This document shows, one piece after another, positions 142 through 41,104 of a DNA stretch of 64,000 bases; position 1 is the stretch's first letter, and every line of letters begins with the position of its first letter. The position numbers and the translations under genes were made by a program. The DNA comes from an uncultured Methanosarcinales archaeon (GTDB lineage Archaea; Nanobdellota; Nanobdellia; Woesearchaeales; DATDXC01). Under the pieces are notes generated by a model. It saw nothing but the letters and a program-made list of their open reading frames with translations. It did not search any database and was not told where the DNA came from. The stretch is taken from assembly GCA_964510025.1 (NCBI GenBank), contig CAZDZV010000001.1, forward strand, positions 63,949 through 127,948, given 5' to 3'.

Positions 142-1335
142 CTATTTTTTTCTTAGCCTGATATAGTTGGTTTTGCCGGGCTGAATAAATAATTGCAGCA
201 AATTCTTCAGATCTGTATGCAGCTCATCGTTGTTTATCATCTTTGCTAACTCATATACATCTACAGTTGCAAGCTTATCCCATAGTCCTATCTTCTTTAT
301 CGTTTCTTCAAAGGACTTTCGCTGGGGATCATTCTTTTTCGGAAATGTAAGTCTTGGGTATTGCTTCACAAATGCAACATAATCTGAGCCGTAAACATTA
401 TTTATGCCCTCTTTCTGGGCAAATGCGACCAGGGCTTCCTTAATCTTTTCAAGCTTCACTGAGATAGCATCAGACTCTGCCTTTAGCTTTGAATATTCAT
501 TAACAAGATTAAGACCTGGCTCTTTCTTATACTCGTTCTCGCTGATCTCATTCAGCCTATAGAGGTGCTTGAAATTCGGGCATATCATCTGAAATTCGCA
601 CCAGCCGCACAGAGCACTCTGCTTTGCCGGAAACTCCCGGGTATTTTCAATTCTCTCTATCAGCTCCAAGACCTCTGCTTTCAGCTGCTCCAGATCCTGG
701 TCTGACCTTTCGCTCCTTAGCTCCTTATCAAATGCGAGATAATGCCACACAAGAACGACTTTTCTACAATCCTTATAGTTCTGCCTTATGGCTATTGAGT
801 ACAGAGCAAGCTGCCTATCCTGGTCTATCTGGTCCTGAGTAGGCAATGAGTTGGATGTTTTATAATCATGAATCTCATACACGCCTCCTGGAAAGGCTGC
901 TAATCTGTCGATAAAGCCCTGCAATGTATAGCCTTTAATCTTAAGCAAGATCCTATGCTCTAAGCCTATTGTCCTGCCTTGATTGAATGGAAAATACTTG
1001 CTATAGTAGTCTGTAATGAACTTTTCGCCCATCTTCTTGTAGTTGTCAGCTGTAAATTGCTTCCTGACTATCACTATCCCTTCTGTAAAATTCAAATCCC
1101 AGGATTTTCGGTAGAATTCCAAAAGCCCCTTCAGCTTATTCAGCTTGGAAAACCTTAGGTCATTGTACAGCTTTTCCAGGGCCTCATGCACTCTTGAGCC
1201 CATAAAAGCTTCAATGGAATTCTCTATCTCTGTCTCCAGTTTATCTATATATTGATACTTAAACTTAAGCGGACACTGCTCAAAACAGTTCAGTCTTGAA
1301 TGTGAATAGACAGGCATTTTAACCGAAGCTTGCAA
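142..1335 (-). CDS. PD-(D/E)XK (RecB/Cas4-like) nuclease with a C-terminal extension
   Basis: N-terminal YSHSRLNCFEQCPLKFKYQYI resembles the Cas4/PDDEXK_1 start. It has an IDRLA...YEIHDYKT (D..E.K) core, a QLALY motif and a CGWCEF..C cysteine cluster. It overlaps the polB stop by 17 bp. Confidence 0.6.
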   Translation of the reverse strand: MQASVKMPVYSHSRLNCFEQCPLKFKYQYIDKLETEIENSIEAFMGSRVHEALEKLYNDLRFSKLNKLKGLLEFYRKSWDLNFTEGIVIVRKQFTADNYKKMGEKFITDYYSKYFPFNQGRTIGLEHRILLKIKGYTLQGFIDRLAAFPGGVYEIHDYKTSNSLPTQDQIDQDRQLALYSIAIRQNYKDCRKVVLVWHYLAFDKELRSERSDQDLEQLKAEVLELIERIENTREFPAKQSALCGWCEFQMICPNFKHLYRLNEISENEYKKEPGLNLVNEYSKLKAESDAISVKLEKIKEALVAFAQKEGINNVYGSDYVAFVKQYPRLTFPKKNDPQRKSFEETIKKIGLWDKLATVDVYELAKMINNDELHTDLKNLLQLFIQPGKTNYIRLRKK

Positions 1336-3679
1336 GGCTTGTTTGTTTGTGTTTTGCTATCAACTCGTCAAAGCTCTTGTTCTGAAAAGACAAAATGGAG
1401 TCAGCTATAGGCTTTAGCTGCTTTTCGATATAGTGCTCATAGTCGATTTTTGAGGTATTATCATCTATTGGCTCTGGGCCGGCTATAGTCATCACATAAG
1501 ATATAATACCCGGAAGCTCTCTCCCAATCTTTCGTGCTGCCTTTATGTGTGGGGGCGTTGTTTTTATATATTTCGATACATTTTTCCGTATTGCCTTCTT
1601 ATAGACCAATAAATCGTCCATCTTTCCTTTCCTTAAATCAGAAACAAATTCGGTAAGATAATTTTCAATAGGCTTGTTATGGAAAATATGATCAAGTAGC
1701 TCCATCTGAAATTTCTTAGAGAGATCTGTCCAGTCTCTTCTTACAAACTCTAAGCCGGTAAAGGTAATTCTCTCCTTGCCGTTTTCCATCAGCAATCCCG
1801 CGTACCTTTTCTTTGCCCCTTTTTCAGATCCTCTTACCCGAGGCATGAGAAATTTCAGAAATGCTTTTTCAAATTCAAGCTCGAGATAAGATTTTCTTCC
1901 ATATTTTTCCATCACATAGCTCTTATAAAACCTGTTTATCTGTTCCTGTAACCCCCTACCAATATTTTCTGCATCTGAAACAATTTCTGTGTTCGTGTTT
2001 ACAAAAATTGAGTCTGTGTCGCCATAAATTACCTCATAGCCTTTTTGCTCAATCTTTCTCGCTGTGAGTTTATTGAGAAACTGCCCAAAATGAGTTATGC
2101 CATTGGCCATCTCCAGTGAATAGAATCGGCAGGTAGGGTTTGCCAGCACTCCAAAGAAAGAATTCATAAGAATCTTTATTGCCTGGTTAGCTAATTTGTC
2201 TCCTTGTTTCTTTGCTGTATCCCTTTGTTCCCACAATCTCTGGATAAGTAAGGGAAGTATACCTTCCTCATTTCTGAAATGGGCCTTATTCGGCGCCTCT
2301 ATCAGTTTTTTCTTTTCATTTTCCGATAGTCTGGAAAATTCTTCTTGTGGTATGAAACTGTATGGATCTATATTAAAGGTGCGGATTATGCTTGGGTACA
2401 GGCTCTTAAAATCAAGAACGATTATCCCTTTATATATGCCTGGCTTGGACTGCATCACAAATCCGCCCTTTATTCTTTCATCCCTTTCATTTACATAGGC
2501 TGTGGGAGCTACAATCTTCCTTTTCTTACATTCCCGTAGATATAAGGAATCCAGCGAAGCTATGCTTGCATTTACCCTGTCTATCTGCATTCCGGTTATA
2601 AGGCTCCTTTTTATAGAAAGGTCCAATGTACTAGATTTTTCGAGAATATCATAAACCAGTTCAGAATCCTTGAGATTGTAATCGACTAGCTTCTGTGGAT
2701 TCCTCTTATAAAGCTGTTCTATCTCCTTGCCCCGGTCCTCTGATGTTATGAGCTTTTCTTGGCCGAGAACCTGCTTGGCAGCGGTATTCAGCTTATAATC
2801 ATCAAGTCTAAGAAACGAGACCTTCATAAGGTGTATACCATCGATTACCGCCCTGCCCCTAAAGTTGGCTGATGAGTCTGAGAAAAAAGAGTCTGTAATC
2901 CTAAATGAACACTCGATATTCTGCCTACCCAGCACAAAAGGTATTTTATAGGCGCTGAACCTTTTCTTAAGTATCATCAAATCAAAATCAATCAGGTTCC
3001 AGCCTGTGATGATATCCGGATCCAGCTGAATAACAATCCTTTTAAACGCCTCCAACAGCTCTTTTTCTGTCTTGAATGTATCTGCATCCTTATAGTCACC
3101 ATTTTTAAGCAGAAGGACTTTTCTGATATCAGCTGAGTAGAGGGAGACCGAAAAGACCTTGGATGCTTTCATGTCTGTCTCTATGTCTATCGATAGAATT
3201 TTCAGATCAGGCCAGTGTTCTGCTACTGAAATCTCTGGATTTTCATATATCCTATCTACAAAAAGACCTTCATCTGGTGCTGGCCTCCTGTGGCTGCCCT
3301 TGAGCTCCATGGACGCCCTTATTCCATTATCTATCATAAACCGATAGGAGAATCTGATGTCTGCCTCATAGCAGTTGATACCTTTGTCAAGAAATATTTT
3401 TCTCAGCTCGGGAACCTCTCTGGGCACGGAGAGTATCACCTTGATAACCTTGTTTGCTTTAAAATCTCTGAATTCTGAGTCTTTTATTGCAATGTTTTCA
3501 GCCCCTAAATCCTTAAGAATTTGGGCTGCTCTCTGCTTATCATTTTTCCTGATCCAAAAATAGGGTTGAAAGTCGCTGACTGTCACGAAACTCTCCCCAT
3601 TTTCAAGTCTTCCAAAAAGCATAACCTGGGCCTTCTTGTTGTATATGCGATAGGTCGGGTAGATGACAAACGCTTTCAT
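1319..3679 (-). CDS. polB: Family B DNA polymerase (archaeal PolB)
   Basis: 786 aa. Exo motifs SIDIETD, YNLIDFDL and YNLKD..YD are present. Pol motifs A (DFKSLYPSII), B (KILMNSFFGVLA) and C (YGDTDS) are present. Confidence 0.9.
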   Translation of the reverse strand: MKAFVIYPTYRIYNKKAQVMLFGRLENGESFVTVSDFQPYFWIRKNDKQRAAQILKDLGAENIAIKDSEFRDFKANKVIKVILSVPREVPELRKIFLDKGINCYEADIRFSYRFMIDNGIRASMELKGSHRRPAPDEGLFVDRIYENPEISVAEHWPDLKILSIDIETDMKASKVFSVSLYSADIRKVLLLKNGDYKDADTFKTEKELLEAFKRIVIQLDPDIITGWNLIDFDLMILKKRFSAYKIPFVLGRQNIECSFRITDSFFSDSSANFRGRAVIDGIHLMKVSFLRLDDYKLNTAAKQVLGQEKLITSEDRGKEIEQLYKRNPQKLVDYNLKDSELVYDILEKSSTLDLSIKRSLITGMQIDRVNASIASLDSLYLRECKKRKIVAPTAYVNERDERIKGGFVMQSKPGIYKGIIVLDFKSLYPSIIRTFNIDPYSFIPQEEFSRLSENEKKKLIEAPNKAHFRNEEGILPLLIQRLWEQRDTAKKQGDKLANQAIKILMNSFFGVLANPTCRFYSLEMANGITHFGQFLNKLTARKIEQKGYEVIYGDTDSIFVNTNTEIVSDAENIGRGLQEQINRFYKSYVMEKYGRKSYLELEFEKAFLKFLMPRVRGSEKGAKKRYAGLLMENGKERITFTGLEFVRRDWTDLSKKFQMELLDHIFHNKPIENYLTEFVSDLRKGKMDDLLVYKKAIRKNVSKYIKTTPPHIKAARKIGRELPGIISYVMTIAGPEPIDDNTSKIDYEHYIEKQLKPIADSILSFQNKSFDELIAKHKQTSLASFG

Positions 3680-3723
3680 AGAAAAAAGTAGAATGCCCTA
3701 GCTTTTAATAGTTTTGCATAGCA

Positions 3724-6700
3724 CTATCCAGAATCCAGGGTTATTGAGAGAGGGATATTAGCATAAAGCCAGTACCCCCTGCCAGAGCGGATGTTTTCAT
3801 CATCTGCAGGTACAAACTTGTATCTCTGGGCTGCAGGGTCAAAGTAATATATTGTTGATTGCAGCCAGCCTGCTGCCTGTGCTTCAGCCAATGATTTGGT
3901 CTCTATTCCATTAGAGACTTGGGCATCTGACCATAAAAACGTATTTCCAGGAGCAGACCCCCCTGCCTGCCCAAGGGTTATGACAATATCATCCTCAAAA
4001 GCATACAGCCAATATCCTGTTTTGGGCATTAGGTAATCATCATCGCCAGGCACGAATTTGTATCTCTGGGCTGCAGGGTCAAAGTAATATATTGTTGATT
4101 GCAGCCAGCCTGCTGCCTGTGCTTCAGCCAATGATTTGGTCTCTATTCCATTAGATACAATTGCGTCTCCCCAATCAAAGGCATTCATCGATGAATGCCC
4201 AAATAGATTCCAACCATCTGCTAGCAATATCTCCCTGTCTATATTCGACTCAAATGGCTGAAGCGCCGGGGTGAAAAGGTTCCAGGCTGCGTCGATCTCA
4301 ATATCATTTCCATCATGCTCACATATGCATGCGGAAGTGCATGTATCTACCGTATCTGGATTACTGTCATCGCAGTCTTCGTCTATTTCGCATGCTGCCC
4401 CGCATCTTGCCATATCACAGGCATGTGTAAATTGGTAATCATCAGGGGAAGGTAGGGTGCATGAATCTGCAGCTTCAAGGCATTCTGAGGCAATTCCTGC
4501 TGCATAATCCCATGTAAGCAGGTTATCATCCAGATTACAACCTTCTAGCTCCGGAAGGTCGTTTGATGAGCAGTCTACCGGTATACCTGGACCGCAGCCA
4601 AGATAGCTGCATTGCTCAGCGCCATTGCAATATTGACCATCATCGCAGACTGTGTGTTCTGGCGTGTTTACGCATTCACCTGAACTGCAGGAATCCAAGG
4701 TACAGGCTATATTATCATCACAATCAGGAATATTCACAGGCGCGCATTGCGAAATTTCCGAACAGATTTCCTGACCATTGCAGTCATTGGAGTCATCGCA
4801 GTCATCTGTTGATTCTGTAGAATCAAAATAAACCGCTCCGTTTAGGCAAGTTGCGCATGTCCCTGCGTCATCATAGTCAGTGCTGCAGTCTGACCAAACA
4901 CCGTATTCACATATCCTGGTGCCTTGGCATACGCCTGTTCCGCAGTCTTCAGTGATATGATCCACATCCCAGTCATTATCATTATCGATACCATCGCATA
5001 CTTCTTCACCTGAGAACTCAGCATATACAAATTCCGGCCCCCCTTCCAAGCCAAGTGCGCCAGTTATAGAGCCGTCATACCATGATAAGGTGTCAGATGG
5101 AAATGGCCTCGGTATTGTCTGAGAATAAAGCCAGATGTCACCTGAAAACTCATCTTCTCTCCAGAGTTCTGCGAAAAATACTCCATCATTATATGTAAAT
5201 GTAAGCATCGGTTCATATCCTGGTGAGAATTGAGAGTACTCTTTTTTCCAGTCAATCTGGCAGGTATCTTCCTCTGCATTCTCCTGACATCCTTCAAAAA
5301 CATAATATCCTTCAATCTCATAACTAAAATCCGGAAGCAGATAGACATCTACAGATGCCTGTTCTGGGTTGCAACAGTTGCTTACAAAAATCCCTGTTCC
5401 ATCCCACCTATATAGAACATCTCTAGATTTATTATAGAATCCGTCTTTATCAACATCAACAACTATATCATAAGAACCAATTCTGGGATTTTCCCAGATC
5501 ATAGATATGTTAATCTCACCATCTGCAGTTGTAGTCATATTATAAGGTCCATCATCGGTCCTATCTTCTAATTGGCTACCGTCTTCAATATCTGTTGATT
5601 CCCATTTCAGATATATATCGATTGACTTATTTACTTCAAATCCTGCCCCCTTCACGTAGACGGGCTCTACCTTGCTAAATTTTGTCTTAAAATTTCCTTT
5701 TGAGTCACATGGTACTATAGCTTGCACTCTGAATCCATAGTTATCATACTTATCAACTAAATCTGTATTGTAATCAAAGTTCCCATTATTATCGAAATCA
5801 AGAATTAGATTATATCTGCCACCCGTTTCAACAATATACTGCGCCGGTATTTCTCTGTTTAATATATGTTTATTTGATCCTGTATCGAGTATTTTTTTAT
5901 TGGATATTGTTCCATCCGGCTGCGTATGTATTGTCTGCATCCCAACAAAGTCAAAATCCATATCTACCTCTGCGGACCAGTTTATACTTTTGTTGTAAAC
6001 AATAACTGCGATTGTTACGTCCTTACTAGCAGGCAAACCTACCGCTTTAGCATATATTGTGTCACCATCTGTGAAATTGTAAGTATAATTTCCTGTCGCA
6101 TTAGTTGCATCAATGCCCAGGGTATTTGAAAAAATTAAGCCAAAAGGCTGACCACCTTTACCGCTAACATCTAGCAAACGGGAAGCTATCACTGTTATAT
6201 TGTAGAAGCCATCTTCTGGTTGTTTTAGGATTATCCTTTCTATAACATTGTTATTCAAATCTGAGTCTTTGGCAAAGGGATTTTCAGCTGAGTTTTTTCC
6301 ATCAGAGGTAAAGGTATTTCCGAGATATCTAGATCCGGTGGGAGATATGGCTTCCAAATCAAGATCATTCCTTAGAGCCTCTAATGGTTTGTCATGCCAT
6401 GCTAAGGTTATCTTCAAGGGTTTTGATTTTGAGAACCGTGCAAAAAAAGAGACTGCTGAGTCTGTTGAAGCTAAGACTGTTTCATTTGCATCCATATAAC
6501 CAACTGTTGTGTGTCTGCCTAAAGGAAACAAAGATTCTGTTATATTGGCCCTGCCCCATCCTTCGCAAACATTGGGGTAGCCTGTACAATCCACTGGTTC
6601 TCTGATACTTGCACCTCGAAGCGTTGGCACGAACAGCTGGTCAGGCAGGTCTACTGCTCCATTTATTAAAAGGGCTTTTATTAATGGAGCGCTTGGCTTG

Positions 6701-9285
6701 TCATGCATTTTTACCTTTCTCAGATATTCCCTGGCTAATGCAGCTAATCCTGCCACGTGAGGAGTAGCCATGCTTGTCCCCCCTGCAACCATGTAATGAT
6801 CGGTTGCCGTGTAACCGAATTCCGACGGAAGACCCCAACCTACACAGTTAGCATGATTGAAATTTATTCTAACTTCATCCATCTCATCTAGATTATTGCT
6901 ATTTGGCAGATAGTGTCTTATGCCGTCAATACATATGGTTGATCTGCATGATACGATATCAAATCCAGGTGCAACAATATCCGGCTTAATTCTGCCCTGT
7001 ATTTCTGTTCCTCTGCTGCTGAAAACCACAACCTCTTCAGGGGTATAGTGCGGGTCAGGTTGGCCTGCCCTAATTCTAGATGTTCCTGATGCTCCAACTG
7101 TAATAACATTCTTTGCTCTCCCTTGAGAAGTCACTGAATTGCCACCTTGTTCAAAAAGCTGGAAGCTTTCATTTCCGATTACACCATGCTTGAATGCAAA
7201 ATTTGCCTCATTGCCAGCAGCAAATAAGACGGTAATATTGTCATTAATCCAGAGATAACTATCCATAAATGCATTTGTAGTAGGACTGTATCCTCCATCA
7301 CTGCCCCAGCTGTTAGTTTGTATTGTTGCTCCAAAAAAAAGTCTGACAATCCCTATAGGTATGCCCCCAAAGTTCATTGAGCCATATGATCTGTTGAGAG
7401 CTTTGTAAAGATTTGTAGAATTTGGATCGTTATGGTTTGTGTATATCTCATCTTCTCCGAACATTTGAAACCGATAAGGTCGGATTCGACCCATCAAAGT
7501 GGGTATTTGCTGTCCTATTGCTTGCATAACGAGATTTGATTTTGGTGCTGATCCCGGATTAATTGGGCCGCTTGATGCTGCTGAACCTGCAACATGGGTT
7601 CCATGGCCACCGAAATCCTTCACAGTTCCTGTCCCCCAATCTTCCATCTGTATAGACCTCCTATAGAAATCAAGAGTCTGAACTGGGCTATTTGTCCCAT
7701 TGTCAAAACCCGTGTCTGCAATAGTTATTGTCTCATCCTGGCCCTGAATATGAAATCGCTGATTAGTTATTTTTGCTCCGGTAATTAAGAGAGCATGTTT
7801 ATTTAAGGGCCGATATATTGGTGGCGTTGAAATGAATTCCACATCCGGCAGATAGATCAAATCAGTCAATGCATTCATCTTAACGGTAACATGCAATAAT
7901 TTGTCATCTATTTGAGTGACATCTGCTCCAAGAGACACTATATCAGACTTAACGTGTGATATGTGGTCAAATACAGAGACAAGTATATTTATAGTCCCTT
8001 CATCATCTACCAAAGTGCCATCAGGATTAAACAAGGAAATGAGATTGTTGTCCTCTGCGATTTTGTTTACAGGATGATAAATTCCTGCTGCCCGGACATT
8101 TGAGTTCAGTATTATTTCAGCTAAGGTTAGATCAGATTTTACAATAAATACGTCTGTTTGGTACGATAGGAATTTCGTTGCATGTATGGAATCAAAGAAT
8201 TGATCCTGCATATTGTAATCAAATCCGTCAACCAGCTGGACATAATAATATCCGGATTCCTGCTTAGCCAACAGATCTACTGGATAGTCTGCTGTTTCAG
8301 ATAGCGGATCAAATATGGCTGCAGGCAAAAAAATATTTTTATCGCAGGCGTCTCCCTTGCCATCCAGATCATTGTCTGCCTGTCCCGCATTGGCATAATC
8401 TATACAGTTATCACAAGCATCTCCCACGCCATCAGCGTCTGTATCTTCCTGACTTGGGTTGAATATTTCGATGCAATTATCTTCACTGTCATTTACATTG
8501 TCAGAATCATCATCTTGGTCGCAAGCATTTCCAACACCGTCAGTATCGATATCAGTCTGATCAGGATTTATCCTATCAACACAGTTATCGCAGACATCAC
8601 CTATACCATCACTGTCAAAATCTAATTGAGACGGATTATTATGCTCAGGACAATTATCGACAACAGAGTATACTAAGTCGCTATCAGGATCAGAAAAAGG
8701 ATTGTAATCCAGCCAGCCATAGAAAGTAATATTACCATCTAACTTTGAACTGATTTGCTCTGAAAGATTTGAATCCCACCAATTTGATGGTAGATAAACA
8801 TATGAGGATTTATATAGGCCAGCGTAGCTAGGCTGGAAACTAATCGATTCCTTGACCGTGCTTCGGACATTGATTAAATTATTGACAAATGCGTTATATA
8901 GGGTGTCAATAGAAGTAAATCCGCTTAATGTAAGACCTATTTCGTTGTGCTCAAGCAGACTATAATCTATGCTCGCCATTGTATTCTCCAAGTGGACGGC
9001 TTCTTGATACTTTCGTATCACGCAGTTCCTAATTATTATGTTCGATTGATTCTCAACCTTGATGGCTGTGCCGATTCCAGAACCGACAATTGAATGAAAA
9101 TTACAATCAAGAGTAAGATCATTTGCCGAAATTTTAAGACAGTCTCCTTCTGATACCAGGTTTGTCTTCAGTATCCATATGCCAGATGCTGTTGGATTAT
9201 CGTCGCAAGAATTTATATCATAAGCACTTACCTTATGTAGCAAGAAAAATATAAACAATATGTAAATAGCTTTTCTGATTTTCAT
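3724..9285 (-). CDS. Giant secreted subtilisin-like serine protease (peptidase S8) with beta-helix, TSP3-like Ca-binding repeats, Cys-rich module and C-terminal tandem domain
   Basis: 1853 aa with signal peptide MKIRKAIYILFIFFLLHKVSA. S8 triad motifs ITIADTGFD, HGTHVAGSA and GTSMATPHVAGLAAL are present. Four DxDxDGxGDxCDNC repeats are present. N-terminal NIIIRNCVI-type beta-helix repeats are present. Confidence 0.85.
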   Translation of the reverse strand: MKIRKAIYILFIFFLLHKVSAYDINSCDDNPTASGIWILKTNLVSEGDCLKISANDLTLDCNFHSIVGSGIGTAIKVENQSNIIIRNCVIRKYQEAVHLENTMASIDYSLLEHNEIGLTLSGFTSIDTLYNAFVNNLINVRSTVKESISFQPSYAGLYKSSYVYLPSNWWDSNLSEQISSKLDGNITFYGWLDYNPFSDPDSDLVYSVVDNCPEHNNPSQLDFDSDGIGDVCDNCVDRINPDQTDIDTDGVGNACDQDDDSDNVNDSEDNCIEIFNPSQEDTDADGVGDACDNCIDYANAGQADNDLDGKGDACDKNIFLPAAIFDPLSETADYPVDLLAKQESGYYYVQLVDGFDYNMQDQFFDSIHATKFLSYQTDVFIVKSDLTLAEIILNSNVRAAGIYHPVNKIAEDNNLISLFNPDGTLVDDEGTINILVSVFDHISHVKSDIVSLGADVTQIDDKLLHVTVKMNALTDLIYLPDVEFISTPPIYRPLNKHALLITGAKITNQRFHIQGQDETITIADTGFDNGTNSPVQTLDFYRRSIQMEDWGTGTVKDFGGHGTHVAGSAASSGPINPGSAPKSNLVMQAIGQQIPTLMGRIRPYRFQMFGEDEIYTNHNDPNSTNLYKALNRSYGSMNFGGIPIGIVRLFFGATIQTNSWGSDGGYSPTTNAFMDSYLWINDNITVLFAAGNEANFAFKHGVIGNESFQLFEQGGNSVTSQGRAKNVITVGASGTSRIRAGQPDPHYTPEEVVVFSSRGTEIQGRIKPDIVAPGFDIVSCRSTICIDGIRHYLPNSNNLDEMDEVRINFNHANCVGWGLPSEFGYTATDHYMVAGGTSMATPHVAGLAALAREYLRKVKMHDKPSAPLIKALLINGAVDLPDQLFVPTLRGASIREPVDCTGYPNVCEGWGRANITESLFPLGRHTTVGYMDANETVLASTDSAVSFFARFSKSKPLKITLAWHDKPLEALRNDLDLEAISPTGSRYLGNTFTSDGKNSAENPFAKDSDLNNNVIERIILKQPEDGFYNITVIASRLLDVSGKGGQPFGLIFSNTLGIDATNATGNYTYNFTDGDTIYAKAVGLPASKDVTIAVIVYNKSINWSAEVDMDFDFVGMQTIHTQPDGTISNKKILDTGSNKHILNREIPAQYIVETGGRYNLILDFDNNGNFDYNTDLVDKYDNYGFRVQAIVPCDSKGNFKTKFSKVEPVYVKGAGFEVNKSIDIYLKWESTDIEDGSQLEDRTDDGPYNMTTTADGEINISMIWENPRIGSYDIVVDVDKDGFYNKSRDVLYRWDGTGIFVSNCCNPEQASVDVYLLPDFSYEIEGYYVFEGCQENAEEDTCQIDWKKEYSQFSPGYEPMLTFTYNDGVFFAELWREDEFSGDIWLYSQTIPRPFPSDTLSWYDGSITGALGLEGGPEFVYAEFSGEEVCDGIDNDNDWDVDHITEDCGTGVCQGTRICEYGVWSDCSTDYDDAGTCATCLNGAVYFDSTESTDDCDDSNDCNGQEICSEISQCAPVNIPDCDDNIACTLDSCSSGECVNTPEHTVCDDGQYCNGAEQCSYLGCGPGIPVDCSSNDLPELEGCNLDDNLLTWDYAAGIASECLEAADSCTLPSPDDYQFTHACDMARCGAACEIDEDCDDSNPDTVDTCTSACICEHDGNDIEIDAAWNLFTPALQPFESNIDREILLADGWNLFGHSSMNAFDWGDAIVSNGIETKSLAEAQAAGWLQSTIYYFDPAAQRYKFVPGDDDYLMPKTGYWLYAFEDDIVITLGQAGGSAPGNTFLWSDAQVSNGIETKSLAEAQAAGWLQSTIYYFDPAAQRYKFVPADDENIRSGRGYWLYANIPLSITLDSG
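3801..4155. repeat. Two-copy tandem direct repeat (240-bp period) inside the subtilase gene, with a 98-bp core that is 100% identical
   Basis: 3818-3915 is identical to 4058-4155 (ttgtatctctgggctgcagggtcaaagtaatatattgttgattgcagccagcctgctgcctgtgcttcagccaatgatttggtctctattccattaga). It encodes the duplicated peptide VSNGIETKSLAEAQAAGWLQSTIYYFDPAAQRYKFVP. Confidence 0.9.
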
Positions 9286-10451
9286 CTTCCGACTTTATTC
9301 GGTAGCTTGTAGACCGTAAATTGTGGCGAATACACATCCTCAGCACCCAATCCAACTCTGGGTCCAAGACTGGTCATACCTCCTGCAAAAGACACATAAG
9401 CGACCTTTTCTTGAACTGCAAAGGCGGATGCTACACCCGTTACAGACGTTCTTGCCTGCTTTTGCTGCTGTAAAGCCTTTTCCAGCTGCTCTGTTGTGAC
9501 TATAACATGACCTTGCTGGTCGGCCAGACCATATTGTACCACAACCGGTGAACTTCCTACGGCAGATCCCCTAGGATGTGAAGCTATGTATAAAGAACCA
9601 TCAACATAGGCTAAGGCAGTTAGTCCTAGCTTTCCAGGTAACCGCTCAAGCTGATTTTGCACCCATTCCCTGGTTGATATAGCCACAATTTCATCCAATG
9701 GTTCATTCCTAATTCCTCCTGCCCCGTACAGTACACCACCAGCAAATGCTGTCCCTAAATGGGCGGCCGTGAAATATCCTTCTCTTTTTTGCAGTCGATT
9801 TAAGCGTGGTTTTGTTCCTGGTTCAAACTTCAATACCTCAAGGATATCGCTATAGGGTGTCTGCTTACTACCTGTTCTTCCACCTAAGATATATATTAAA
9901 CCGTCATCCCCTATAGTTGCAGAATGTGCGTATCTTGTTATTAAATCGGCCCCAATTGGTAAAGACTCACCTGTCTTAAGGTTCATAAGTTCCGCACTTC
10001 CTAAAACCTGTAGTTCATCCTCTTTTAAGGTATAACCCCCCAATATCAATAAATATTCATTGCCAATAGGTACAATAGCAGGTGATACTCTAGCTGTAGT
10101 CATCTGTGAGAACTCAGTCATCCTGTTTCTGCTCAGATCATATTTTTCAACAGATTTCAGAGCAGCTCTGCGAAAAGTGCTAGATTGTCTTTTCTGTCCT
10201 AGAATTTCAATCTCGCGGGTTTCTGCAACCCTAGCTAGACCACCAACTATGTAGGCGTTCTCTCCATTATTATCCCACAAGACAGCTGAATAGGCTCTTG
10301 GAGTAAGCATGCTAGCTATGGTAACTTCCAATTCAGACTGTGCCACGGGGGCTGGTGGCTGGTTGCCTCTACCCAAATCGACTGGAAGAGCAGCAAGAAC
10401 CAGCCCTAGTCCTGCTCCGCCGGCTCTTCGTAAGAATTGTCTCCTATCCAT
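9282..10451 (-). CDS. Tat-signal Kelch/beta-propeller repeat protein (galactose-oxidase-like fold)
   Basis: Twin-arginine signal MDRRQFLRRAGGAGLGLVLAALP. Repeated YxxGG/IYILGG Kelch-like blades. The stop overlaps the subtilase start (ATGA). GC is visibly higher than the neighbours. Confidence 0.65.
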   Translation of the reverse strand: MDRRQFLRRAGGAGLGLVLAALPVDLGRGNQPPAPVAQSELEVTIASMLTPRAYSAVLWDNNGENAYIVGGLARVAETREIEILGQKRQSSTFRRAALKSVEKYDLSRNRMTEFSQMTTARVSPAIVPIGNEYLLILGGYTLKEDELQVLGSAELMNLKTGESLPIGADLITRYAHSATIGDDGLIYILGGRTGSKQTPYSDILEVLKFEPGTKPRLNRLQKREGYFTAAHLGTAFAGGVLYGAGGIRNEPLDEIVAISTREWVQNQLERLPGKLGLTALAYVDGSLYIASHPRGSAVGSSPVVVQYGLADQQGHVIVTTEQLEKALQQQKQARTSVTGVASAFAVQEKVAYVSFAGGMTSLGPRVGLGAEDVYSPQFTVYKLPNKVGR

Positions 10452-10687
10452 GTAACATCACCTTCAAGAACTTGTTTATCACAACTATCGTTTTTATCCC
10501 CGGGTTAAAAGGAATGTTTTAAAGTTTATAAACTTTTTCATTATTTACTACTTAATAATGTTAACTTCCTCTAATAGAAAACAAGTGCAACCGCCTAGAT
10601 ACCGTTATCCAATTTCTGAAAGTACCTGGACTCCAAGAATAACATTCTTCTGCTATGCCCAAGAATGAAAACTTTGTGGAAATAAAA

Positions 10688-10837
10688 CGCGCCTGCGAAG
10701 ATTCGAACTCCGGACCTAATGCTTACTTCTAAAGCGAAGCTTGCACGATTGCAAAGCTTTGCTCTGAAATAGGAGGCATTCGCTCTTTTTGTCCCTGCGG
10801 CAACAGCAGCAGGAAATCCAAGCTGAGCTACAGGCGC
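10688..10837 (-). tRNA. tRNA-Arg (anticodon CCU) with two putative introns (D-loop region and canonical 37/38)
   Basis: The reverse complement folds by hand into a cloverleaf: acceptor GCGCCUG/CAGGCGC, T-arm CGGAG-UUCGAAU-CUUCG, anticodon stem AAUGC/GCAUU with loop CUCCUA+A. It is about 150 nt, so roughly 75 nt of inserts. Confidence 0.55.
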
Positions 10838-10872
10838 ATATTCAGATGTGAGCAGTATTTTATTTAAAAAGT

Positions 10873-11577
10873 TTACCTAGAAGCCTTTCTTTTTCTGGGT
10901 TTTTTCTTGTAAACATAACCTCTCAAGAATTTTACCCCCAAATAAACAAATGGTGTATCCAGAAGGGCTACGCAAACTTTCAATGCCCAATAGGGTATAA
11001 TCAGGACAAACAAATAGGCAACATTAAATTTTGGATTTGTATTCAATGCTGCTGGAACAAACGAAAAAGGAAGGTAATAAAGGGCTATAAACATAAATAC
11101 TACTGTGTCGATAAACTGGGAGATCATAGTGGAAAGGTTATTCCTAAGCCAAAGAAACTTTCCCTTGGTCTTTTCCTTCCAGAAGTTAAATGACCAGATA
11201 TCGTGCATCTGGCTTACCAAGAATGCTATGATGCTGGCAATGAAAAACCTGATGCTTATGCCGAAAACCTTAGTATATTCTTCTGCCTGCACATAACTCC
11301 TATCAGCGTACGGCAGCCAGACTGATAAGGCTGTCATAGACAAAATGAAAAACATAGACAAGAAGCCTACCCATACGAATTGCTTTGTTTTTTCTTTGCC
11401 GTGCACTTCTGCTATGACATCTGTAATAAGAAAGGTCAGGGGATAGGCGAAAATTCCGACTGAGAATTGGACAAAACCTAGCTGTGCAATCTTTGAACCG
11501 AGCAGACTAGCTGCAACCAAAGAAGATGCAAATAACCCCAAAAAAAGATTTGTCTTGGTTTCCAGGTTCCACCTCAT
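10873..11577 (-). CDS. VUT/YhhQ-family membrane transporter (putative queuosine/7-deazaguanine precursor transporter)
   Basis: Multi-TM protein with YPLTFLITDVIAEVHGK, matching the conserved YhhQ/COG1738 ITD..E.YG block. A paralog is at 21000-21713. Confidence 0.6.
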   Translation of the reverse strand: MRWNLETKTNLFLGLFASSLVAASLLGSKIAQLGFVQFSVGIFAYPLTFLITDVIAEVHGKEKTKQFVWVGFLSMFFILSMTALSVWLPYADRSYVQAEEYTKVFGISIRFFIASIIAFLVSQMHDIWSFNFWKEKTKGKFLWLRNNLSTMISQFIDTVVFMFIALYYLPFSFVPAALNTNPKFNVAYLFVLIIPYWALKVCVALLDTPFVYLGVKFLRGYVYKKKPRKRKASR

Positions 11578-11598
11578 AACAAAACCGAGTTTTATGGC

Positions 11599-12369
11599 TT
11601 ATTTATAATCTTTTCTGTTAGATTTTATAAAGAAGATAAGGGCGCTGACAAATATAAGCAGATAGACTATCTGCTCTATAGTAAGCCCAAGGATAAAGCC
11701 ATATTGGTCTGCAATCTTAAAGAAACCTAGCAAAAACCTTGACAGTGAATACAGAAGCAGAAAGACCAGCAACATGGTTCCAGTCTTGCTCTTTCTTTTA
11801 GTAAGACTTAAGAGAAATAAGAAAATCATAAACAAAGCTATACTATTATAAAGCTGGACCGGATGCCGAAATCCTGCGTGAGACGGGAATTTGACAGCCC
11901 ATGGCACTGATGCTAATCTTCCTACAAATTCACTGTTGATGAAATTAGCTATCCTGCCCAAAGCTAATGCCAGAGGAAGAGGGACCACACATATGTCCAT
12001 CATCCTAAAAAAGTCCATCTTTTTTTTCTTGCAGTAAATATACAGAGCTACGATAGCGCCCAGAAAGCCGCCCAGAAATATTAGTCCGCCTTCCCAGACA
12101 GCCAATATCTTAAGAGGATTTCTGATAAAGTAAGGAATATTGTAGAAAACGAAAAAAAGCCTCGCACCTGATACTGTGCCAACTATCAAATAGAATATAA
12201 GGTCCATAATCTCATCCTTATCCAGATCTATCTTTTTCCGGCTGACTAAGTTCCTGATCATGAAATACGCGATTATGAAACCCAAAGCATAGATTACGCC
12301 ATAATACCTAATCTCCAGAAATCCAATTTTCAAAAGAGTTGGATTAATGCTATGGATGAACACCTTCAA
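11599..12369 (-). CDS. lgt: Prolipoprotein diacylglyceryl transferase homolog
   Basis: Blocks align with E. coli Lgt. YGVIYALGFIIAY corresponds to YGLMYLVGFIFAM. GARLFFVFYN...ILAVWEGGLIFLGGFLGA corresponds to GGRIGYVLFYN...FRVWDGGMSFHGGLIG. LGRIANFINSEFVGR corresponds to AGRLGNFINGELWGR. HPVQLYN corresponds to HPSQLYE. Confidence 0.8.
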   Translation of the reverse strand: MKVFIHSINPTLLKIGFLEIRYYGVIYALGFIIAYFMIRNLVSRKKIDLDKDEIMDLIFYLIVGTVSGARLFFVFYNIPYFIRNPLKILAVWEGGLIFLGGFLGAIVALYIYCKKKKMDFFRMMDICVVPLPLALALGRIANFINSEFVGRLASVPWAVKFPSHAGFRHPVQLYNSIALFMIFLFLLSLTKRKSKTGTMLLVFLLLYSLSRFLLGFFKIADQYGFILGLTIEQIVYLLIFVSALIFFIKSNRKDYK

Positions 12370-13109
12370 ATCCTCTTGATTATTAGATATGCATATAGCC
12401 TATTTATGAAGTGCATGGCATATAAAAAAAACACGCTGATAGCTGCAAATAAATATTTCAACAAACCGGCTGCCTTCAGAGAGCCGAAAGAGAATAGCAG
12501 GCTGAATACTACAGCTGCACACGAAAATACCAGCACCCCATAGTACCTGTCTACTCTCTTGACTGCTGAAATCGTCTTGCTCAGTATTTTGATAAGGCTG
12601 TCCTCTTTTATAGACAGCGAGTGTGCAAAATTTATGAATAAATAAAGAGCCACTCCATACAGGATAAGGAAAAAAGTAGCAAGAGCCTGAAAAAAAGAGT
12701 TTTTGAACAAAAAAAATACCAAAATATTTACAAAGAAGAAAACAGCTAATGCGCATACGATGATTATCAGGTTTAGAAGAAATAATTTCTTGAGATTCAG
12801 CCTCGGTTTCTTCTTGTCATAAAGACCGATTCTCTGCAGTATGAGAGCCTTGAATAGACTATATATAAAAACAAGGAATAGATTGTAGCATAGAAAAAAC
12901 AGCAAAAAGAAGTATATGCCTGAGGTCCTCACATAATTCTGAATTTGATCAGGGTTACCTGGGAGGTATTGTCGAATCAACCATCCGATGGATGCCAATA
13001 TTCCCAAAAAAAGCGCATCAAATAAGAAAATAACAAAGAAATTATTTGGCTTGTGCTTTATAAGTTCCAGGCTCTTGTAAAAAACAGATTCTTTTATTGC
13101 CCAGACCAT
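12366..13109 (-). CDS. Polytopic membrane protein, function unknown
   Basis: 247 aa and highly hydrophobic (F/L/I rich) with several predicted TM helices. It overlaps lgt by 4 bp, consistent with an operon. Confidence 0.4.
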   Translation of the reverse strand: MVWAIKESVFYKSLELIKHKPNNFFVIFLFDALFLGILASIGWLIRQYLPGNPDQIQNYVRTSGIYFFLLFFLCYNLFLVFIYSLFKALILQRIGLYDKKKPRLNLKKLFLLNLIIIVCALAVFFFVNILVFFLFKNSFFQALATFFLILYGVALYLFINFAHSLSIKEDSLIKILSKTISAVKRVDRYYGVLVFSCAAVVFSLLFSFGSLKAAGLLKYLFAAISVFFLYAMHFINRLYAYLIIKRI

Positions 13110-13110
13110 A

Positions 13111-14127
13111 TTAGCATTGTCCTGTAGCAGGCGAGTCGGTTACCTCATAGCCAAAACCAGGGCTTGGTGTTTCTGCAGCTAGTTCCTGGCTGCATTCTTC
13201 TGGAGGCTCTATGAAGCTATTGCAGATTGTGGCTAAATAAGCTGCTGGAGACCTGCCGCTGCTAGCCATCTTCCCGTTTATAACAAGCGATGGTGAACCA
13301 CGAATCCCATACTCATCGTTCTCTTCATCATGTATTGAGAAAGGCGGAAACCTTGTTTCCCATGATGCCTGATCGTTCAGGGTCTCTGTAATCTTATATT
13401 CTTCATCAGTAGCTTCTGTGCAGCCCTCTAACTTAGCTGTATCGATGGATGCTTCTTCTATGCATTCTTCTGAATTGCCTTCTTTTAAGAAACATTTCAG
13501 GTAATCCAGAAATTTATCTGGCTCTTCCTTATCTATGCAATATTGCTGCAGCTGTTCATTCACTTCCACTTCTCCGTGCATTGCATAATTAACAAACTTA
13601 AGTTCAAAATCGATCTTATCGCCCAAAAGCTCTACAACAGGAATGATACCTTTCTCTGACTGTGTCCCATAAGGACAGTGCGACATTACAAATAATTCCA
13701 CAGTCGGCTTTTCTGATTTGACAGCGGCCGGCTCTTGAGTAGCTGAAGTAGGATCCTGAGTTGGTTGTTCTGCCTGTTCTGTCATATCTATAACAGTTGG
13801 AAAAAGAAGTTTGCCGTCTTTTGTAACATATGAATCATACTCATTTCCGGCTATATCCAGCTTCACGTTGTAAAGGTCAGAGTTTTCCTCAACACCTAGC
13901 TGCTTCGCGCTTACACCTGGCTGCATGAGATTAGTATTTATGTAGCTTATTGCCTTATCGGCAGCCTCTTCCGGAGAAAGAACCTGCCCGGCTGATGCAG
14001 GTGAATTGAAATTGAAATATAAAGAAACAATTAACAGTATTGCCAAGATAGTGGTGGTAGACTTCCATATTTCGCTCTTTTTAATCCTGACATTCTTGTG
14101 ATGATGTTCATGTTTTTTAGATTCCAT
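13111..14127 (-). CDS. Membrane-anchored extracytoplasmic thioredoxin-fold (DsbA-like) protein
   Basis: N-terminal TM anchor. Contains SHCPYG (degenerate CxxC) and a C-terminal GSPSLVINGK that resembles the DsbA cis-Pro loop GTPTFVING. The extracellular part is Cys-rich. Confidence 0.4.
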   Translation of the reverse strand: MESKKHEHHHKNVRIKKSEIWKSTTTILAILLIVSLYFNFNSPASAGQVLSPEEAADKAISYINTNLMQPGVSAKQLGVEENSDLYNVKLDIAGNEYDSYVTKDGKLLFPTVIDMTEQAEQPTQDPTSATQEPAAVKSEKPTVELFVMSHCPYGTQSEKGIIPVVELLGDKIDFELKFVNYAMHGEVEVNEQLQQYCIDKEEPDKFLDYLKCFLKEGNSEECIEEASIDTAKLEGCTEATDEEYKITETLNDQASWETRFPPFSIHDEENDEYGIRGSPSLVINGKMASSGRSPAAYLATICNSFIEPPEECSQELAAETPSPGFGYEVTDSPATGQC

Positions 14128-14184
14128 AAAAATACCCCCCTATTTTTATTTCTGGTGAATTGCGATAGTATTTAAATGTTACCT

Positions 14185-14397
14185 TTATATTGTTTTGTTT
14201 TTAGACGAATATTTAGTCACTTTTCTGGCTGTTAGGTCTTTAATTCCGCTTTCCAGCAACCCAAGATCATAAGCTGAACCACATTCGGGGCATATGAAGA
14301 TCACAAGAAATTTACTACCTTTTTTTGTGAATGATGTATGAAATCCCCTTTCGTATCCGCAATTAGAACATACTCTAAACTCGTTCAAATGTGTCAC
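14185..14397 (-). CDS. Small zinc-ribbon protein
   Basis: 70 aa with CSNCG...CPECG (two CxxC pairs). Confidence 0.4.
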   Translation of the reverse strand: MTHLNEFRVCSNCGYERGFHTSFTKKGSKFLVIFICPECGSAYDLGLLESGIKDLTARKVTKYSSKNKTI

Positions 14398-14481
14398 CTG
14401 CCGTATTCAACGCATTCTGCATATGTGTCTGCTAGCACAATCCGCACCATTGTCATAGCCTTCAAATGTGGACCATACATC

Positions 14482-14847
14482 CTATCCCACTTTTATCTCT
14501 TTTGAATATTCCCATAATCCATGGAGATTGCACCTTATCTTTGCTTTCAGGACATGACTTTCATTCAGGCTTATATTAAGCGTCACCTTGGGTGAACCTA
14601 CAACCGGAATAAGATCTGCCCTGCTTATGAACAGGTCGTCTGCTGACAGTTCAATCCATTCTATATAGTGGGTATTCAGATTTGGATGCTGCAGTAGTTT
14701 GCCTACTTCTATTGTAACCGCAAATTGCTCCCCTTGATTCACCTTGTCCGGGCATTCTATTATTGGAATGTGCTTTTTTTCTAGGTCTTCAAGATTATCC
14801 ATATCTTTCGGCCTATTTATCTTCAAAAAAAGATTTTCTTCTGCCAT
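14482..14847 (-). CDS. sor: Superoxide reductase (neelaredoxin-type)
   Basis: KKHIPIIECP and HPNLNTHYIEWIEL match the SOR EKHVPVIE and H..E.HYI.WIEL blocks. The start is taken at the internal Met (MAEENLF) just after the upstream stop at 14852. The long ORF extension is probably spurious. Confidence 0.7.
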   Translation of the reverse strand: MAEENLFLKINRPKDMDNLEDLEKKHIPIIECPDKVNQGEQFAVTIEVGKLLQHPNLNTHYIEWIELSADDLFISRADLIPVVGSPKVTLNISLNESHVLKAKIRCNLHGLWEYSKEIKVG

Positions 14848-14851
14848 GGTA

Positions 14852-15355
14852 TCATCCTCCGTCTGCGATCCATTTTTCTTCTTTGCTGTAGAAACCCTCG
14901 GGATCCTTGATAAATTGGTAAGCCTTATCAATGAGCTCATAATGCGCATTTTCCTGAGCCATAATCCATTTAAAGAACTCCTTAAGCTTTTGGTCATCTG
15001 CTGCTTCATACTGTTGCTTATAGAAGTCATAGGACTTTTTCTCCAATTCAAGCCCGGTTTCATGTGCCTTTAGGTCATCTTCACTCAGCTCTGTTTTTTC
15101 CTTGAACTCCCTGATAGTCATGGAAAAAAACTGCTTGGTCTGCTCAAGCTTGTCTCCTTTCAACTCAATCTGCTTTGTTTTCATATAGCCTTTAAGTTCA
15201 TCTATATGATTTAGCTCTTCGTCAGCAAGATAGCTGAATGTTTTTTCCACAATTGGATTATCGGTAGTCTCTGCTGCTTTTGTATATATGCTATGCCCTT
15301 TTTCCTCAAAATCAATAGCTGTCTTCAGTGCTGTTTTCAAGTCCATTTTATTCAC
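14852..15355 (-). CDS. Rubrerythrin/ferritin-like diiron protein (no rubredoxin domain)
   Basis: Paired E..H motifs: EEKGHSIY, EELNHIDEL, AQENAHYELI. Confidence 0.55.
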   Translation of the reverse strand: MNKMDLKTALKTAIDFEEKGHSIYTKAAETTDNPIVEKTFSYLADEELNHIDELKGYMKTKQIELKGDKLEQTKQFFSMTIREFKEKTELSEDDLKAHETGLELEKKSYDFYKQQYEAADDQKLKEFFKWIMAQENAHYELIDKAYQFIKDPEGFYSKEEKWIADGG

Positions 15356-15397
15356 CTCATTCGGCTGTAGGTAGATATGATTTAATAAGCTTTTGTT

Positions 15398-15886
15398 CTA
15401 TTTTCTCTCCCCCAGAGCTCGGTCCAGCATAAGCAGGCCCTGAGGTGAGTCTTTTATCATCTTAAGCTTCTGGACTATCGCATCGGTCTGCTCTTCTTCT
15501 TCAACCTGCTCGTCCACAAACCACTGCAGCATGGAAAAGGCAGGCTTGTCGTCTTCTTCTTGTGCGAGGTCAACTAAGCTGCTAATCATTCCAGTTACCT
15601 TTACCTCATGGTCGTATACTGCCTGAAAGGCTTCAAGGGGAGATTTCCAGCTTTTAGGGGGCGCATCTATCTTATCTAGAACAACTGCCCCACCCCTTTC
15701 TACAATATGCTTATAGAATCTCATAGCATGCTCCTGCTCCTCCTTCGCCTGCTGCCTCATCCAGCCTGCAAATCCACCCAGGTTAAGGGATTCGAAGTAT
15801 GCAGACATAGACAGGTACATATATCCTGAATATAGCTCTGCATTTATCTGCTTGTTAAGTTCTTGTTCTATTTTTTTGCCTATCAT
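15398..15886 (-). CDS. ftn: Ferritin
   Basis: NAELYSGYMYLSMSAYFES...QEEQEHAMRFYKHIVERGG is a ferritin-like diiron helix bundle, about 160 aa. Confidence 0.7.
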   Translation of the reverse strand: MIGKKIEQELNKQINAELYSGYMYLSMSAYFESLNLGGFAGWMRQQAKEEQEHAMRFYKHIVERGGAVVLDKIDAPPKSWKSPLEAFQAVYDHEVKVTGMISSLVDLAQEEDDKPAFSMLQWFVDEQVEEEEQTDAIVQKLKMIKDSPQGLLMLDRALGERK

Positions 15887-21713: not shown

Positions 21714-21799
21714 CAGGTCATGTAAATCGAGCTGCTATTAAAGTTTATCGGAAAGCTTAACAATAAACTTTATAAATGCTTTTGCAAATCTCTTCATTA

Positions 21800-32550: not shown

Positions 32551-32551
32551 C

Positions 32552-33706: not shown

Positions 33707-33719
33707 TGTTTCCCCCCGA

Positions 33720-34454: not shown

Positions 34455-34738
34455 TAAATCACCCAAAAAAAAAGAAATTGTGAGCATATTTAAATTTTTC
34501 TAAACGTTAGATTTATAAATAAGTCTTGAATTCAATTCCCCATGAGCAATAGATACTACAGCAACAGATTGAGAAAAATAGAAAAGAAAAAGCTCAAGGT
34601 CAGAAGAAGAAAAAGCAGACCAAAATCTTTTAAGACAGAGGAAGCCGCCAGAAAATGGGCGGAATCTAACAAGATTAAAAAATATGTCCTGAAAGACCTG
34701 AAAACAGGGGATAAGAAGAAGATTATAGTGGTAGCTGA

Positions 34739-40468: not shown

Positions 40469-40476
40469 ATGAGCAC

Positions 40477-41010: not shown

Positions 41011-41104
41011 AGTGTAATTTATTTATATAATTTTCGTAAAATGACAAGCTATATGCATCACGAAAACGAATAGTTTAAATAACACTTTATAACCCTATGT
41101 AGTC

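Follow-up and report, generated by a model that had tools for sequence, protein, structure and literature searches.

A predicted export operon for a Kelch protein and a multi-domain KP-43-type subtilase in an uncultured anaerobic archaeon

The archaeal DNA analysed here, a 64-kb stretch (hereafter the window) of a 277-kb contig (CAZDZV010000001.1), carries at positions 3724-10451 two overlapping minus-strand genes, one for a Kelch-repeat protein with a twin-arginine translocation (Tat) signal and the other for a very large subtilase with a Sec-type signal peptide. We consider it probable that both genes form a translationally coupled, exported pair devoted to extracellular and possibly cell-associated proteolysis, in which the Kelch protein would be an accessory partner of the enzyme. 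Judged by its sequence, the archaeal protease belongs with the KP-43-type S8 subtilases and has many domains; it is an extracellular enzyme of an ordinary kind that is fitted with an unusual set of modules. An initial annotation, made from the DNA letters, had proposed this operon together with its horizontal acquisition and a role as adhesin-protease of a possible episymbiont.

Results

Two overlapping genes with a common predicted transcript

The list of open reading frames (ORFs) places both genes on the minus strand, where the stop codon of the Kelch gene overlaps the start codon of the protease gene in an ATGA at 9282-9285. This overlap, already noted in the initial annotation, is confirmed by an independent Logan assembly of SRR7048224, which matches window positions 9205-16592, junction included, with 1 mismatch. 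The two genes and the flanking signals, the latter read from the sequence, are the following.

10525-10532, minus strand: putative archaeal promoter, TATA-box-like TTTATAAA, ~75 nt 5' of the Kelch ATG
10457-10464, minus strand: Shine-Dalgarno-like AAGGTGAT, 5 nt 5' of the Kelch ATG
9282-10451, minus strand: Kelch-repeat protein gene, 389 aa, without cysteine
3724-9285, minus strand: multi-domain S8 subtilase gene, 1853 aa
3680-3723, minus strand: intergenic spacer from the protease stop to the PolB start, with TATTAAAA and a T6 run

The Shine-Dalgarno-like element, a strong one, is presumably complementary to the conserved 3' end of 16S rRNA. Since TTTATAAA and AAGGTGAT precede the Kelch gene while TATTAAAA and the T6 run follow the protease stop, a two-gene transcript is the simplest reading of the layout, and the spacer at 3680-3723 would hold a likely transcript end and a separate PolB promoter. 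A scan for bacterial promoters and terminators, a type of scan that is not applicable to archaea, gave a result no better than chance.

A cysteine-free Kelch protein with a Tat signal

The Kelch protein can be divided into three parts, all encoded on the minus strand.

10377-10451, minus strand: Tat signal peptide, residues 1 to ~25, with RRQFL, h-region and basic c-region
9702-10289, minus strand: confidently modelled Kelch blades, residues ~55-250
9285-9701, minus strand: divergent C-terminal third, residues 251-389

Its N-terminus, MDRRQFLRRAGGAGLGLVLAALPVDLGR, displays an RRxFL motif followed by a 15-residue uncharged stretch rich in G, A and L and then by a basic c-region. The immediate context, DRRQFLR followed by AGGAGLGLVLAALPV, agrees with an (S/T)RRxFLK-like motif and a weakly hydrophobic h-region, whose mean Kyte-Doolittle hydrophobicity (1.33) is lower than that of the Sec signal of the protease (1.66). 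The N-terminus also passes the TIGR01409 model (TAT_signal_seq) with 20.9 bits versus a cutoff of 16.7 (E 3e-4), and the twin-arginine signal proposed for this ORF at the outset, with its RR and hydrophobic stretch, thereby withstands closer inspection.

The assignment to Kelch repeats is also sound, with four Pfam families above their cutoffs (Kelch_4, 36.6 versus 21.6 bits; Kelch_6, 32.8 versus 25.3; Kelch_1, 27.2 versus 20.1; Kelch_3, 25.2 versus 22) and with sequence matches to Kelch domains of the PDB. An AlphaFold2 (AF2) model built on 16 aligned sequences has a mean predicted local distance difference test score (pLDDT) of 63; residues ~40-220, comprising ~4 blades, reach 70-97, and residues 250-389 stay below 50. 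In Foldseek, the model matches six-bladed Kelch domains such as that of KEAP1 (7k2h, E 4e-10), with template-modelling (TM) scores of 0.36-0.47 when normalised on the query. From the GG doublets of the Kelch alignment (70-71, 138-139, 190-191, 245-246 and 357-358), a count of six blades is suggested, with one blade degenerate. Weak blade-like motifs are also discernible in the C-terminal third (LYIASH, and AYVSFAGG with the invariant G357/G358), which may be the source of two degenerate blades.

Compared with the six-bladed domains of KEAP1, the KLHL family and the designed SAKe proteins, the repeat signature and the predicted blade geometry are alike. The last third of the protein is highly divergent from them, and no BTB or BACK domain accompanies the repeats as in KEAP1/KLHL; the archaeal protein has instead an export signal and a long β-hairpin in blade 1 (residues 72-105). 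A word-indexed search of 5.8e9 clustered proteins returned the Kelch protein itself as the only match, and an exhaustive phmmer search of 1.84e9 representatives returned generic Kelch repeats only, mostly over residues ~95-260 and almost never beyond ~300. On these searches, the Kelch protein is an orphan with no relative beyond generic repeat similarity.

A KP-43-type subtilase core among accessory modules

Ten segments can be distinguished along the 1853 aa of the protease, from its N- to its C-terminus.

9223-9285, minus strand: Sec-type signal peptide, residues 1-21, MKIRKAIYILFIFFLLHKVSA, with predicted cleavage before YD
8686-9213, minus strand: right-handed β-helix (NosD/CASH-like), residues ~25-200
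8338-8691, minus strand: thrombospondin type-3 (TSP3) Ca-binding repeats, residues 199-316
7741-8337, minus strand: family-specific pro-domain-like region, residues 317-515
6643-7740, minus strand: S8 catalytic domain, residues 516-881
6118-6642, minus strand: KP-43-type C-terminal β-barrel/jelly-roll, residues ~882-1056
5386-6117, minus strand: two putative immunoglobulin (Ig)-like β-sandwich units with terminal DxDxDG loops, residues 1057-1300
5011-5385, minus strand: segment without family, residues 1301-1425
4306-5010, minus strand: Cys-rich module with CTDC-like CDD..C repeats, residues 1426-1660
3727-4305, minus strand: ~190-aa C-terminal double module, a GWNL strand and two ~80-aa repeats each ending in GYWLY, residues 1661-1853

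The catalytic domain scores 110.9 bits against PF00082 (Peptidase_S8; cutoff 21.8). Its triad and oxyanion residues, D524 (IADTG), H561 (GHGTHVAG), N658 (TNSW) and S838 (GGTSMATP), are invariant in all six aligned members of the family. A phmmer comparison with PDB sequences, which concerns sequence and not structure, retrieved the bacterial subtilases KP-43 (1wmd, E 5e-41) and SubHal (5fax, E 3e-38), the best stretch aligning residues 827-1034 with chain positions 244-418 and thereby taking in the last part of the catalytic domain and the β-barrel, which is kept in all relatives. As in KP-43 and SubHal, the S8 domain is directly followed by the β-barrel/jelly-roll, and the similarity spans both domains. 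The differences are of size and content: KP-43 and SubHal are bacterial proteases of ~430 aa in their mature form, whereas the archaeal protein has 1853 aa, seven extra module types and large insertions within the catalytic domain (e.g. residues 590-650).

The region that precedes the catalytic domain (residues 317-515) is conserved in the five relatives P0272, P0273, P0274, P0275 and P0045 described below. No Inhibitor_I9 match was found there with Pfam, only a weak one to CspB_prodomain (E 0.14). A long N-terminal pro-region that is not of the I9 type has been described for the KP-43 subfamily, whose pro-peptide runs through the active site and is removed by self-cleavage (PMC11982257). From its position, its conservation and this precedent, the region probably acts as a pro-peptide.

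Among the accessory modules, the TSP3 block is the best defined, with 64.5 bits over five stretches against PF02412 (TSP_3; cutoff 25) and PDB matches to COMP (3fby, E 2e-36) and TSP-2 (E 2e-32). Residues 222, 245, 281 and 304 each open a DxDxDGxG[DN]xCD motif. Four TSP3-like repeats had indeed been announced by the initial annotation, although the strict DxDxDGxGDxCDNC pattern that it quoted is found in two of the four. The calcium-binding pattern DxDxDGxxDxCDNC is the same as in thrombospondins, COMP and prokaryotic TSP3 proteins, but here only 4-5 repeats form a short, linker-like block within a protease. Residues 198-292 also match the MtsC model of Myxococcus cell-cell cohesion (NF047638), with 106 bits, below the cutoff of 350.

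The N-terminal β-helix passes PF05048 (NosD) marginally (26.5 versus 23.6 bits, E 5e-6), fails PF13229 (Beta_helix; 19.4 versus 25.9) and reaches 15.4 of the 300 bits asked by TIGR04247. This region is a β-helix and not a NosD orthologue, and it is missing from all five aligned relatives. The Ig-like units, common only to the long relatives P0045 and P0275, have no Pfam or PDB sequence match, and residues 1301-1425 have none in Pfam, NCBIfam, PDB or the fetched loci. The Cys-rich module, which packs 30 Cys within residues 1430-1655, matches only Dicty_CTDC, at 20.3 bits and under the cutoff of 27. PDB searches by sequence and by profile with the β-helix, Ig-like, 1301-1425, Cys-rich and C-terminal parts gave nothing significant. 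As a whole, the protease contains 52 Cys, 281 Asp+Glu versus 112 Lys+Arg and 21 N-glycosylation sequons, and its Sec signal is the sole strongly hydrophobic segment, so that no membrane anchor is present. The domain list of the initial annotation stands in full (β-helix, TSP3-like repeats, S8 domain, Cys-rich module, C-terminal duplication), the Pfam models for S8, TSP_3, NosD and Kelch all scoring above cutoff.

A portable C-terminal double module

The announced duplication of the C-terminal domain is visible in the DNA, where 3797-3945 and 4037-4185 form a repeat of 149 nt with 88% identity. Its two protein copies share an identical core of 37 aa (residues 1710-1746 and 1790-1826), whose codons differ at 4 synonymous positions. 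Since these identical cores are enclosed by diverged flanks, and since the two repeats differ from each other in relatives of the module, the pattern suggests intragenic gene conversion.

No Pfam, NCBIfam or PDB match was obtained for the module, by sequence or by profile, and a single-sequence AF2 model was of low confidence (pLDDT 41.6). A metagenome scan retrieved two module relatives on archaeal contigs: a 400-aa secreted protein with the module at its C-terminus (49% identity) and a 673-aa protein with the module directly after the signal peptide (36-37% identity), whose gene adjoins an S8 gene and sits between archaeal DNA ligase and MCM genes. A third copy (58% identity) belongs to a 1036-aa protein with LamG and TSP3 on the same contig as the 400-aa protein, and a scan of viral contigs found nothing. 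By its distribution, the module is a portable unit that secreted proteins of archaea can carry at either end. As it occurs at either terminus, it is not a sorting signal and more likely serves as a binding or anchoring domain.

The contig of the 400-aa protein (locus L088, SDBV01000396.1) carries at 1190-11651 a same-strand run of ORFs of 202, 904, 284, 400, 381 and 1036 aa, with two overlapping pairs, which encode proteins of unknown family; the N-terminus of the 400-aa product is signal-peptide-like. This run resembles a reservoir of surface modules that are reshuffled within low-GC (guanine plus cytosine) archaea. A Kelch identity was considered for the unknown ORFs beside the module genes of this locus and was rejected, as hhalign found no similarity with the Kelch profile, and no Kelch gene was found near other module-bearing genes. 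It is highly improbable, in our estimation, that the module founds a new archaeal surface-anchoring or docking family with the Tat-exported Kelch protein as its dedicated partner, in a two-component surface protease that would combine a pre-folded Tat substrate and an unfolded Sec substrate.

Relatives share the core but neither the full architecture nor the Kelch neighbour

As a search with the full-length protease was dominated by TSP3-repeat proteins, it was repeated with residues 315-1302. No full-length relative was found, the best matches being 41-45% identical over the core only. These nearest relatives are three proteins of ~800 aa that cover ~75% of the core query: P0272, from a metagenome-assembled genome (MAG) labelled 'archaeon', P0273, from a 'Nanoarchaeota archaeon' MAG, and P0274, from a Logan assembly. 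Like the window protease, they display a signal peptide, TSP3, the pro-domain, S8 and the β-barrel in the same order; they differ from it by the absence of the β-helix, Ig-like, Cys-rich and C-terminal double modules, and they appear to be single genes without a Kelch neighbour.

Two long relatives at 30% identity, P0045 (1766 aa, Logan contig) and P0275 (1665 aa, partial, Micrarchaeota MAG), show a similarity that begins at the last TSP3 repeat and extends over the core and the Ig-like units, DxDxDG loops included. They have neither the β-helix nor the GWNL/YWLY module nor a Kelch neighbour, and P0045 has TSP3 at its C-terminus. Between their Ig-like units, P0045 (L002, 4041-9341) and P0275 also carry a peptidoglycan-binding domain (PG_binding_1), which the window protease does not have.

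The contigs of P0045, P0272, P0273 and P0274 show no Kelch gene beside the protease gene, and a tblastn search of 87 fetched loci with the Kelch protein matched only the window's own region. A family-alignment scan of 185,579 species genomes gave, among the matches listed, nothing but generic S8 genes, none of them above 34% identity. Because the contigs of the relatives, the fetched loci and the genome scan yielded neither, the module architecture and the Kelch pairing appear specific to this lineage. The synteny that the initial annotation had proposed to look for in other genomes is thus not conserved beside any relative inspected.

Discussion

How the pair might work

The reading that we prefer, a translationally coupled and exported pair for extracellular proteolysis, can be put together as follows. 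The Cys-free Kelch propeller would fold in the cytoplasm and be exported in the folded state through Tat, while the acidic, Cys-rich pre-pro-subtilase would leave through Sec in the unfolded state and acquire its fold outside with the help of Ca2+ and disulfides. Its non-I9 pro-domain would serve as chaperone and inhibitor before being cleaved off in a zymogen-type processing. The β-helix, TSP3, Ig-like, Cys-rich and C-terminal modules most likely have polymers or the envelope of the cell itself as their ligands, and the Kelch protein may interact with the enzyme as an accessory binding partner. Finally, the enzyme, which may be associated with the envelope or with particles, could by its degradation of proteins feed a lifestyle based on the fermentation of peptides and fatty acids. 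Among archaea that degrade proteins in sediments, the secretion of peptidases is a recognised trait (PMC9123169).

Several observations weigh against this scheme. The Kelch-protease pairing was met in no other genome or locus searched, so that the 4-nt overlap and the shared codon bias are the only signs of a partnership. No TatC match was obtained among the scanned ORFs of the window. As residues 250-389 of the Kelch protein are not confidently modelled, a closed propeller is unsupported. In addition, the pro-domain lies C-terminal to the β-helix and TSP3, and autoprocessing would consequently detach those modules from the enzyme.

The best-surviving alternative holds that the Kelch and protease genes are functionally unrelated neighbours and that the ATGA overlap is a matter of compact gene packing. 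Overlaps of stop and start are indeed frequent in the window (e.g. 1319-1335, 12366-12369, 29956-29972 and 31762-31769), and the pairing was conserved in none of the loci searched. However, both products bear export signals, and both genes share one apparent promoter region and the same deviation in codon usage; we hold the alternative to be rather unlikely.

A more specific proposal, close to that of the initial annotation, sees the pair as an attachment device of an episymbiotic archaeon of the DPANN type, with a protease that sticks to and digests the envelope of a partner cell and a Kelch protein that aids recognition. The closest core homologues do come from MAGs labelled 'archaeon', 'Nanoarchaeota' and 'Micrarchaeota', and the SPEARE proteins of Nanohaloarchaeota offer a precedent of very large extracytoplasmic proteins that unite serine-protease and adhesion-type domains (PMC6642349). 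In the same vein, the below-cutoff MtsC match of the TSP3 block, the PG_binding_1 domain of the long relatives P0045 and P0275, and the recurrence of the C-terminal module with TSP3 and LamG in other secreted archaeal proteins can be cited for this proposal. SPEARE proteins have, however, 3,300-8,500 aa, a transmembrane segment, a conserved cytoplasmic type III restriction-enzyme region and laminin-G (PMC6642349), whereas in the window protease we found no transmembrane segment beyond the signal, no nuclease and no laminin-G match, nor, with Pfam, a PG_binding_1 domain. Moreover, the Kelch-protease pair is not conserved in the DPANN relatives, the metabolism encoded in the window is broader than is typical of reduced episymbionts, and there is no known host to which the binding-type modules, real as they are, could be linked. 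The attachment device seems unlikely to us, and an adhesin or episymbiont role of the protease is at this stage speculation.

Base composition, codon usage and the question of a foreign origin

The 'visibly higher GC' once attributed to the Kelch gene amounts to 0.454, against a gene mean of 0.416 (standard deviation 0.026; 63 ORFs), a value that is equalled or exceeded by 5.8% of same-size windows and thus lies only at the 94th percentile. The excess is located at the first and second codon positions (GC1 0.567, GC2 0.456) and is due to a protein composition in which Gly, Ala, Arg and Val abound while Lys, Ile and Asn are scarce. GC at third positions (GC3) is 0.338 in the Kelch gene and 0.345 in the protease gene, where it is low over most of the domains, and both values are below the window mean of 0.423 ± 0.043. 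The GC-rich impression is therefore marginal; it is an effect of amino-acid composition and gives no support to horizontal transfer.

A deviation in codon usage is nonetheless detectable. In a likelihood test of synonymous codon use, the two genes have the highest z-scores of the window (3.2 and 3.9), but the effect is small, with an excess Kullback-Leibler (KL) divergence of 0.039 and 0.010 nats per codon, and similar GC3 values occur in other genes of the window. Of the windowed GC and codon-usage deviations that the initial annotation had suggested to compute, that of codon usage is present and small, and a GC shift at synonymous sites in the claimed direction is not found. The genes slightly favour codons that end in A or T, which would fit weak expression or an older acquisition from lower-GC archaea.

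Directly upstream of the Kelch gene lies a tRNA-like gene (10688-10837, minus strand) that is called by neither ARAGORN nor Rfam. Its acceptor stem, D-stem, anticodon stem (AATGC/GCATT) and T-arm are normal, and inserts of ~30 nt and ~46 nt interrupt the D-loop and the anticodon loop, respectively. Once both are removed in silico, the ARAGORN call is most often tRNA-Arg(CCT). A second gene of the same build (59918-60035, minus strand), in which the D-loop holds an insert and the anticodon loop a short one, becomes tRNA-Arg(TCT) after in-silico splicing, its 3' end being 2 mismatches away from that of the first gene.

The two protein genes could then be viewed as a recently acquired foreign island inserted beside the tRNA gene 10688-10837. 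The z-scores and low GC3 values given above, the lower GC (0.30-0.36) of most contigs with protease relatives, the orphan status of the Kelch protein and the tRNA-like gene itself may all be quoted in its favour. Yet the codon effect is small and shared in GC3 by other genes, the GC deviation first invoked results from amino-acid composition, and weakly expressed secreted genes would explain the low GC3 equally well. Family scans of the neighbouring genes found no integrase, a search for att repeats beside the tRNA gave as sole second match to its 3' end the tRNA-like gene at 59918-59941, 49 kb away, and ordinary housekeeping genes occupy the flanks. In an integrated genomic island, one expects a deviant composition along with an integrase gene and a directly repeated tRNA 3' end, and this combination is not encountered here. 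As the nearest S8 relatives are archaeal as well, and as synonymous sites are not shifted in the claimed direction, the horizontal acquisition deduced from GC content is not supported, and a recent island appears quite improbable.

The host and the neighbouring genes

The window displays archaeal markers (the gene order S13-S4-S11-RpoD(Fe-S)-L13-S9, RadA, topoisomerase VI A and B, Translin) together with those of an anaerobe (desulfoferrodoxin, rubrerythrins, subunits of 2-oxoacid:ferredoxin oxidoreductase (PFOR)). Metabolic genes include acyl-CoA dehydrogenase with electron transfer flavoprotein (ETF), thiolases, FabA-like and FabG-like proteins, glutamate synthase, biotin carboxylase and carboxyltransferase (parts of acetyl-CoA carboxylase), GpsA and PlsC. 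By its gene content, the host is an anaerobic archaeon of fairly rich metabolism, with a heterotroph's profile, and does not have the look of a minimal episymbiont. Reports exist of GpsA from Woesearchaeota, and of PlsC as well as PlsY from several lineages of archaea, DPANN included (PMC6431249), and a DPANN affiliation is possible, being compatible with the GpsA/PlsC content.

Part of these genes belongs to a glycerolipid set of bacterial type (28354-30603, minus strand; 11599-12369, minus strand; and the 30603-48452 region), with GpsA, two PlsC-type acyltransferases and Lgt. Fatty-acid-type genes accompany this set and encode ETF, acyl-CoA dehydrogenase, a short-chain dehydrogenase/reductase (SDR), thiolases, a FabA-like protein, biotin carboxylase, carboxyltransferase, a protein resembling the biotin carboxyl carrier protein (BCCP) and a thioesterase. 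The set is self-consistent, since Lgt (prolipoprotein diacylglyceryl transferase) needs a diacylglycerol lipid as donor, and it bears on the 'lipid divide' (PMC6431249).

Two ORFs between Lgt and the oxidative-stress genes (12366-14127, minus strand) encode a 247-aa polytopic membrane protein without family match and a 338-aa membrane-anchored protein with weak thioredoxin/GILT-like matches and an SHCPYG motif. This pair could constitute a thiol-disulfide system of the extracytoplasmic space and would then be of relevance to the nearby protease and its 52 Cys.

Directly 3' of the protease gene (142-3679, minus strand), a DNA polymerase of family B is encoded; it scores above the cutoff of the 'DNA polymerase II' equivalog model of NCBIfam (789.6 versus 570 bits), and its gene overlaps that of a 397-aa PD-(D/E)XK nuclease with a weak Cas4 match. 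The aspartyl-tRNA synthetase gene (21776-23545, plus strand), in otherwise archaeal surroundings, encodes a GAD insertion domain, which we take to be of bacterial type. Two paralogues of Vut_1, a putative transporter for the uptake of vitamins or queuosine precursors, are located ~10 kb apart (10873-11577 and 21000-21713, both minus strand), the second adjoining a tRNA-guanine transglycosylase gene.

To conclude, this work removes a false lead, since amino-acid composition accounts for the apparent GC enrichment of the Kelch gene, which is thus no sign of gene transfer. The C-terminal module, common to several secreted proteins of low-GC archaea, could be defined as a new domain family and is the most reusable result. 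The operon would be of interest for uniting, in a single unit, a Tat substrate free of Cys and a Sec substrate rich in Cys. If the proposed function is correct, the locus would add one more large secreted subtilase to the means by which uncultured anaerobic archaea reach detrital protein, a result that is unsurprising in itself and whose value would lie in annotation.

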